NCBI RefSeq assembly: GCF_050320075.1
Contig: NZ_CP190018.1
Origin: Escherichia coli
GTDB lineage: Bacteria; Pseudomonadota; Gammaproteobacteria; Enterobacterales; Enterobacteriaceae
DNA length: 64,000 nucleotides
Reading direction: 5' to 3' (one strand)
Within the stretch, counting starts at the first letter, position 1, and every line of letters starts with the position of its first letter. The notes beneath the pieces were generated by a model. That model was not told the origin of the DNA. It did not search any database and saw only the letters and a list, made by a program, of their open reading frames with translations. Positions 33,239-33,447 of this stretch are shown here, in pieces. The translations under genes were made by a program, and so were the position numbers.

Positions 33239-33250
33239 TTTCCCCGTAAA

Positions 33251-33281
33251 GCGGCAACTTTTTTGAGTTGCCGCTTTTTTA
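33251..33281 (+). terminator. Rho-independent terminator downstream of pflA
   Basis: Hairpin GCGGCAACT-TTTTTG-AGTTGCCGC followed by TTTTTTATT. Confidence 0.7.
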
Positions 33282-33447
33282 TTCCGCGCTGCATAAATAA
33301 TTCAGAGCTCTATTTCTAACGCCCTTACAGCACAGCTTCCAAATGTATTACCCAAACCGCCAGTATATGTCCTGCGGCTTGCGCGCATTTCTCGATTATG
33401 TAAAAACGGGTCAGATCTGCCAGAGTCAGCGTCACCGACCACAATAA

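Follow-up and report, generated by a model that had tools for sequence, protein, structure and literature searches.

The genes pflA and ycaM are directly convergent neighbours in the window, a term used here for the whole 64,000-nt stretch of E. coli DNA that was analysed. The stop codon of pflA is found at 33236-33238 and the reverse-complement stop of ycaM at 33448-33450, so that the gap between both genes (33239-33447) measures 209 bp. The features of the locus, in order along the window, are the following:

32498-33238, plus strand: pflA, coding for the activating enzyme of pyruvate formate-lyase (246 aa plus stop); this CDS is also in the annotation of the identical strain CFSAN061763
33248-33283, plus strand: intrinsic terminator of pflA, a GC-rich hairpin with a 13-bp stem (33248-33277) and a T-run after it (terminator scan)
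33295-33334, minus strand: diverged remnant of the ycaK 3' flank, 40 nt (MAFFT alignment A1)
33334/33335, no strand: very probable deletion junction, where K-12 positions of about 948773-950248 are missing
33335-33447, plus strand: 3' remnant of ycaN, a pseudogene fragment with residues 267-302 plus the TAA stop, 97% identity
33448-34878, minus strand: ycaM, APC-family permease, 476 aa, intact; protein 100% identical to K-12 YcaM

Gene order and the pflA terminator

The whole window is collinear with positions 983578-918542 of K-12 MG1655, in reverse orientation and with about 98% identity; the same degree of identity (98%) is maintained up to position 33294, and the nucleotide sequence of pflA is 97.8% identical to that of K-12. 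The product of ycaM has a Pfam match to AA_permease_2 (E 2.6e-29). For this gene, the ORF-list call of 33448-35070 (540 aa) is over-extended, the real gene being the one of 476 aa given above.

Downstream of pflA, the sequence at 33248-33277 has the two hallmarks of an intrinsic terminator on the transcribed strand, namely a GC-rich hairpin and a U-tract, the tail directly 3' of the hairpin being TTTTTTATT / UUUUUUAUU (terminator scan). The fold energy of the hairpin is -20.3 kcal/mol, with z = -5.2 versus shuffled sequences. The reverse strand also folds (-19 kcal/mol), with a tail in the ycaM direction that is only UUUAC. The same hairpin is found in K-12, where it lies between the convergent genes pflA and ycaK.

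The gene order in K-12 MG1655 is ycaM(+), ycaN(-) at 948660-949568, ycaK(+) at 949668-950258 and pflA(-), and the distance between the ycaM and pflA stops is 1,680 bp, versus 209 bp here, which amounts to a net difference of 1,471 bp. The first-pass annotation of this DNA had described pflA and ycaM as directly convergent, 209 bp apart and separated by a clean pflA terminator, and both points are borne out, by the coordinates of the stops and by the terminator scan, respectively. It had also stated that ycaK and ycaN stand between ycaM and pflA in K-12, which is correct according to the MG1655 annotation: pflA does not adjoin ycaM in that strain. Its estimate of a deletion of roughly 1.6 kb has to be lowered to the net difference just given.

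Remnants of ycaN and ycaK and the deletion junction

The gap is not devoid of ycaN sequence. In tblastn searches of the window, residues 267-302 of K-12 YcaN matched positions 33337-33444 with 97% identity (E 2e-19). The remnant, which contains the last 36 codons of ycaN and extends over 113 nt with a nucleotide identity of 96-98% to K-12, ends in a TAA (33445-33447) directly adjoining the reverse-complement TTA of ycaM (33448-33450). This stop-to-stop contact has its counterpart in K-12, where ycaM ends at 948659 and ycaN starts at 948660 in convergent orientation. Hence, the assignment of the remnant to ycaN is based on both sequence homology and orthologous position. In K-12, YcaN is made up of an HTH_1 domain (residues 7-63) and a LysR_substrate domain (residues 91-290), as defined by Pfam. 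The former and most of the latter are lost from the window, and the remaining fragment of 36 aa matched no Pfam family and does not qualify as a functional LysR-type factor. An Ile-to-Met change in the remnant gives rise to an incidental ATG ORF of 34 aa (33343-33447, plus strand, MYYPNRQYMSCGLRAFLDYVKTGQICQSQRHRPQ), which is probably not expressed, since no Shine-Dalgarno-like sequence is evident upstream.

As regards ycaK, the best match of the K-12 protein to the whole 64-kb window had an E value of 2.4 (tblastn), and no coding sequence with a Flavodoxin_2 fold was recovered there. The first-pass statement that no ORF of the window resembles ycaK or ycaN is thus upheld for ycaK and has to be corrected for ycaN, residues 267-302 of which, with their stop, are encoded at 33337-33447. 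In the alignment, all that is recognisable of ycaK is its stop with the last codons, some 10 nt in length: positions 33325-33334 (TTACAGCACA) are the counterpart of K-12 TTATAGTGCA, the reverse complement of the ycaK stop and last codons.

Comparison with K-12 by blastn aligned 32400-33294 with 951178-950284 and 33335-35200 with 948772-946907, leaving unmatched 40 nt of the window (33295-33334) and 1,511 bp of K-12. The origin of this 40-nt filler was addressed with alignment A1, in which MAFFT was given the window gap, both K-12 flanks and the matching interval from each of four further Escherichia genomes. The filler aligns with the sequence just downstream of ycaK in K-12 and in the other Escherichia, sharing 76% identity with E. 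albertii, 70% with two scars of cryptic lineages and 56% with K-12; moreover, every one of the 209 bp of the gap has a counterpart in other Escherichia, in sequence near pflA, near ycaK or in ycaN. When the scars were globally aligned to the K-12 interval (1.7 kb) with a low gap-extension penalty, the result was clean only for SCPM-O-B-8794 and E1V33 and the filler was otherwise scattered into spurious blocks of 3-8 nt, and alignment A1 was used instead. The filler was also considered as a piece of the bcs island allele of E. coli 06-00048 and no match was obtained; that allele is wholly different from the pflA stop to the ycaM stop, and its flanks have only about 88% identity.

The window shares with the K-12 ycaN-ycaK module its locus, the ycaN 3' end lying against the ycaM stop and the collinear flanks (about 98% identity), and differs from it in the missing interval, which includes nearly all of ycaK (bar a few vestigial terminal codons), the divergent promoter region shared by ycaK and ycaN, and ycaN codons 1 to about 265. 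The exact break is ambiguous by a few nucleotides, AGCACAG being present both at the junction and inside K-12 ycaN. An imperfect repeat of 11 nt, with 8/11 identical positions, is present at the two breaks in K-12 (ycaK side: TCTACCATATC; ycaN side: GCTTCCAGATC), and the window keeps GCTTCCAAATG at the junction. The position of the break between short imperfect repeats suggests an illegitimate deletion of the microhomology type, rather than an event mediated by a mobile element. Given the imperfect match of the repeat pair in K-12 and the age of the allele, the junction seen today may differ from the original one. In alignment A1, the junction showed no foreign filler and no trace of an IS, of terminal inverted repeats or of an att-like duplication, and no transposase or integrase ORF is present in the ORF list.

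Since the 3' end of ycaN is still in the gap, the difference from K-12 points to a deletion and not to a gain specific to K-12. Thus, the 209-bp gap is, with little doubt, the scar of an old ycaN-ycaK deletion of about 1.5 kb, a common allele in which both flanking genes are intact. Such a deletion would have taken out the divergent module formed by ycaN, which encodes a LysR-type regulator, and ycaK, which encodes a flavodoxin-like NAD(P)H oxidoreductase. It would have spared the pflA terminator, some 40 nt of the ycaK 3' flank, now diverged, and the final 36 codons of ycaN against the ycaM stop. An artefact of assembly or collapse can practically be discarded, the same junction being present in 1,023 independently finished genomes and the identity between the window and CFSAN061763 being 100% in the 901 bp that were compared.

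The scar is already known as an annotated pseudogene and is a widespread, ordinary allele. The RefSeq/PGAP entries A8V30_RS06095 (O157:H7 FRIK2069) and CA897_RS15255 (CFSAN061763) correspond to the remnant: this PGAP pseudogene of 111 nt, located between pflA and ycaM, coincides with it in position and shows no difference. It is labelled as 'incomplete; missing N-terminus', and is described as a LysR family regulator in O157:H7 and as a hypothetical protein in CFSAN061763. A literature search on the deletion returned only K-12-centred work on YcaN, and no paper on the polymorphism was found in the library searched.

Distribution and history of the alleles

The populations searched were 5,426 complete RefSeq E. 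coli genomes, which fall into the following classes:

K-12 ycaK-ycaN segment present: 3,341 genomes (61.6%)
Window-type scar: 1,023 genomes (18.9%), found with a 65-bp junction probe at 95% identity or more
pflA adjoining ycaD, with ycaK, ycaN and ycaM all absent: 1,047 genomes (19.3%)
Other alleles: 15 genomes (0.3%), by subtraction

When the full 209-bp interval was used as query, 1,023 genomes were also found. The carriers of the scar include many O157:H7 strains, with the same structure. The scar is a common allele and not a private mutation; lineages of the O157:H7 type and others are fixed for it, and it accounts for 19% of the complete genomes. The group in which pflA adjoins ycaD includes the type strain ATCC 11775. 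The allele of this strain (and of 1,046 further genomes) is likewise a deletion at the same locus, starting just past the pflA terminator, but it is larger and has another junction, the ycaN remnant, ycaM and the ycaM-ycaD spacer being lost as well. Among the 15 genomes with other alleles is 06-00048, with a 12.7-kb bcsABC + GGDEF + EAL island at the locus. Matches on plasmids were also noted, in five places for the ycaK-ycaN segment and in one for the scar junction, and in strain EC96 the ycaK-ycaN segment is interrupted by two IS1 copies.

For the outgroups, YcaM was used to scan a single genome of each species, and the proteins encoded next to it were then located by tblastn; the scan took in five Escherichia loci and, for Salmonella, arizonae and diarizonae. 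In Citrobacter (several species), Kluyvera, Yokenella and Pluralibacter, as well as in Salmonella arizonae and diarizonae, ycaM and pflA are convergent, with spacers of about 50-160 bp and without ycaN and ycaK. Within Escherichia, scars with ycaN remnants were found in all four outgroups with a readable pflA-ycaM junction, while the fifth locus, that of E69 (L023), has no pflA within reach and shows large ORFs after ycaM that resemble the 06-00048 island. The junction of E. albertii matches that of the window in position and length, and its filler is the closest one (76%, versus 56% for K-12). Escherichia sp. MOD1-EC7003 has a different junction, with ycaN kept from about codon 250 and the break at the ycaK stop, and SCPM-O-B-8794 and E1V33 have a common junction at K-12 950244|948762, with an offset of 5-10 nt from that of the window.

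Three other explanations for these data have to be weighed against an old deletion, and two of them had been raised by the first-pass annotation. The possibility that ycaK and ycaN moved elsewhere in the genome, instead of being lost, was addressed by megablast with a chimeric query composed of the 65-bp scar junction and the 1,511-bp K-12 segment. This query matched 4,364 genomes and, since this union equals the sum of 1,023 and 3,341, the overlap between the scar set and the ycaK-ycaN set is zero. Although the window covers only 64 kb of the genome, no evidence supporting a relocation was found: at megablast sensitivity, the K-12 segment is in no scar-type genome, either on the chromosome or on a plasmid, and among the scar-type matches listed, each has a single matching place. 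Relocation is therefore very improbable and loss holds. A gain of ycaK-ycaN only in the K-12 lineage, with the window as the ancestral state, deserves just as little credit. It would agree with the direct convergence of ycaM and pflA in relatives outside Escherichia and with the somewhat low GC content of the K-12 ycaN-ycaK segment (0.41-0.47), but the 113-nt remnant of ycaN in the window is placed and oriented as in K-12, every Escherichia outgroup yielding a junction has ycaN or ycaK remnants, and the presence of ycaK-ycaN in 3,341 of the 5,426 genomes extends far beyond K-12. The K-12-specific acquisition proposed as an alternative in the first-pass annotation is thus contradicted; of the strain-specific deletion that it also proposed, the deletion is confirmed by the ycaN remnant, whereas the strain specificity is not, given the 1,023 E. 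coli genomes with the scar and its occurrence in E. albertii.

The third explanation concerns the junction common to E. albertii and window-type E. coli, which could stem from independent deletions at the same microhomology instead of from one ancient event or transfer. Several different deletions did happen at the locus (those of MOD1-EC7003, of SCPM-O-B-8794/E1V33 and of the genomes with pflA next to ycaD), and imperfect repeats flank the break in K-12. Nevertheless, independent origins are unlikely: the fillers of the window and E. albertii share a derived CATAAATAATTCAG, absent from K-12 and the other scars, have AGCACA in common, unlike K-12 and the other scars with AGTGCA, and are closer to each other than the window filler is to that of K-12, in the proportion already given.

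As the relatives outside Escherichia are without ycaN and ycaK, the pair looks like an insertion on the Escherichia stem that was later lost repeatedly. On the basis of these sequence comparisons, ycaN-ycaK was probably inserted into the tight convergent junction of ycaM and pflA on that stem. The most parsimonious reading of this small outgroup sample is that the pair was then lost independently at least three times, in the window/E. albertii type, in the MOD1 type and in the type with pflA next to ycaD, and the SCPM/E1V33 type may be a fourth loss. By the same reading, and with the same small sample, the window-type scar would be an old haplotype, which either predates the E. coli radiation or crossed species boundaries. 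Since the comparison with E. albertii is based on one genome, shared ancestry and inter-species transfer are indistinguishable in it.

Probable functional consequences and other cassettes at the junction

The function of YcaN has been studied in K-12, where deletion of ycaN decreases the expression of ycaC, increases that of ycaD and focA, and leads to a negative formate-utilisation phenotype (PMC9068703). Furthermore, ycaM-ycaN has been listed as a convergent excludon, with overlapping 3' transcription, in this strain (PMC12288877). A cell of the scar type would have neither YcaN nor YcaK. In such a cell, ycaM would retain the ycaN-derived stretch, probably as its 3' UTR, but would lose the opposing transcription from ycaN, and its transcripts would now head towards the back of the pflA hairpin. 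A structured ycaM terminator within the ycaN remnant was considered and rejected, the antisense sequence not being unusually stable (z = -0.33) and no minus-strand terminator being found at 33239-33447 by the terminator scan. In view of both results, the ycaM transcripts probably either stop at the back of the pflA hairpin, with its poor U-tract in that direction, or read through it.

A broader reading may be put forward tentatively, although the odds are rather against it as a whole. Both alleles would be much older than E. coli, and the presence or absence of YcaN-YcaK would be a cross-species polymorphism, kept by recombination or by niche-dependent selection, with recurrent loss at a cassette hot spot across Enterobacteriaceae. 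If this were true, the loss of ycaN would abolish the ycaM-ycaN excludon and would alter how ycaC, ycaD and focA are regulated in strains of the O157:H7 and B2 types.

At a practical level, findings on YcaN in K-12 are not transferable to the approximately 38% of complete E. coli genomes that are without the regulator, O157:H7 and the type strain included, and the three alleles provide a simple lineage marker. The polymorphism itself is a routine one of accessory genes, mildly notable for the age of the scar, the recurrent loss and the hot-spot character of the junction, and the locus exemplifies a junction of convergent genes which repeatedly gains and loses cassettes.

Two of these cassettes occupy the same convergent junction as the scar, from which they differ in being insertions of unrelated content, with functions guessed from ORF sizes and annotation only. 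The first one is the bcsABC + GGDEF + EAL island of E. coli 06-00048 and E69 (L023). In 06-00048 (L005, 3780-16489), this 12.7-kb island is located between pflA and a divergent ycaM (about 88-90% identity), and encodes one EAL and one GGDEF protein together with a second cellulose-synthase set (bcsA-bcsB-bcsC). Replacement extends beyond the island, into pflA at its 3' end and across ycaM, and this extent suggests that the DNA was imported from another species. The second one, of 4.8-5.8 kb, lies between ycaM and pflA in C. werkmanii, Citrobacter sp. and some Kluyvera (L011, L013, L033, L042) and, going only by N-terminal sequences and the sizes of the ORFs, resembles a set of PTS EIIA/EIIB/EIIC components with a split transketolase and an RpiR-like regulator. 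Other Citrobacter have a gene for a secreted protein of about 263 aa at the ycaM/pflA junction.

On the other side of pflA, no PflB match was found within 7 kb after this gene in E. albertii NBRC 107761 (L009, 10378-17428). An integrase-like ORF of 331 aa and phage/P4-like ORFs are present there, so that a mobile element apparently lies between pflA and pflB.

Finally, two repeat arrays were observed elsewhere in the window. At 56215-56709, a unit that contains the last 19 nt or so of a tRNA plus its terminator hairpin occurs in three tandem copies, spaced by about 179 bp, after the tRNA-Ser(GGA) gene serW (56215-56302) from which it derives its tRNA part; K-12 has a single copy (925835-925902), and the repeated serW 3' ends resemble attachment-site duplications left over from integrative elements. 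In the ftsK linker (47599-47753), the window has 78 bp more than K-12, corresponding to two extra repeat units of 39 bp (13 codons).
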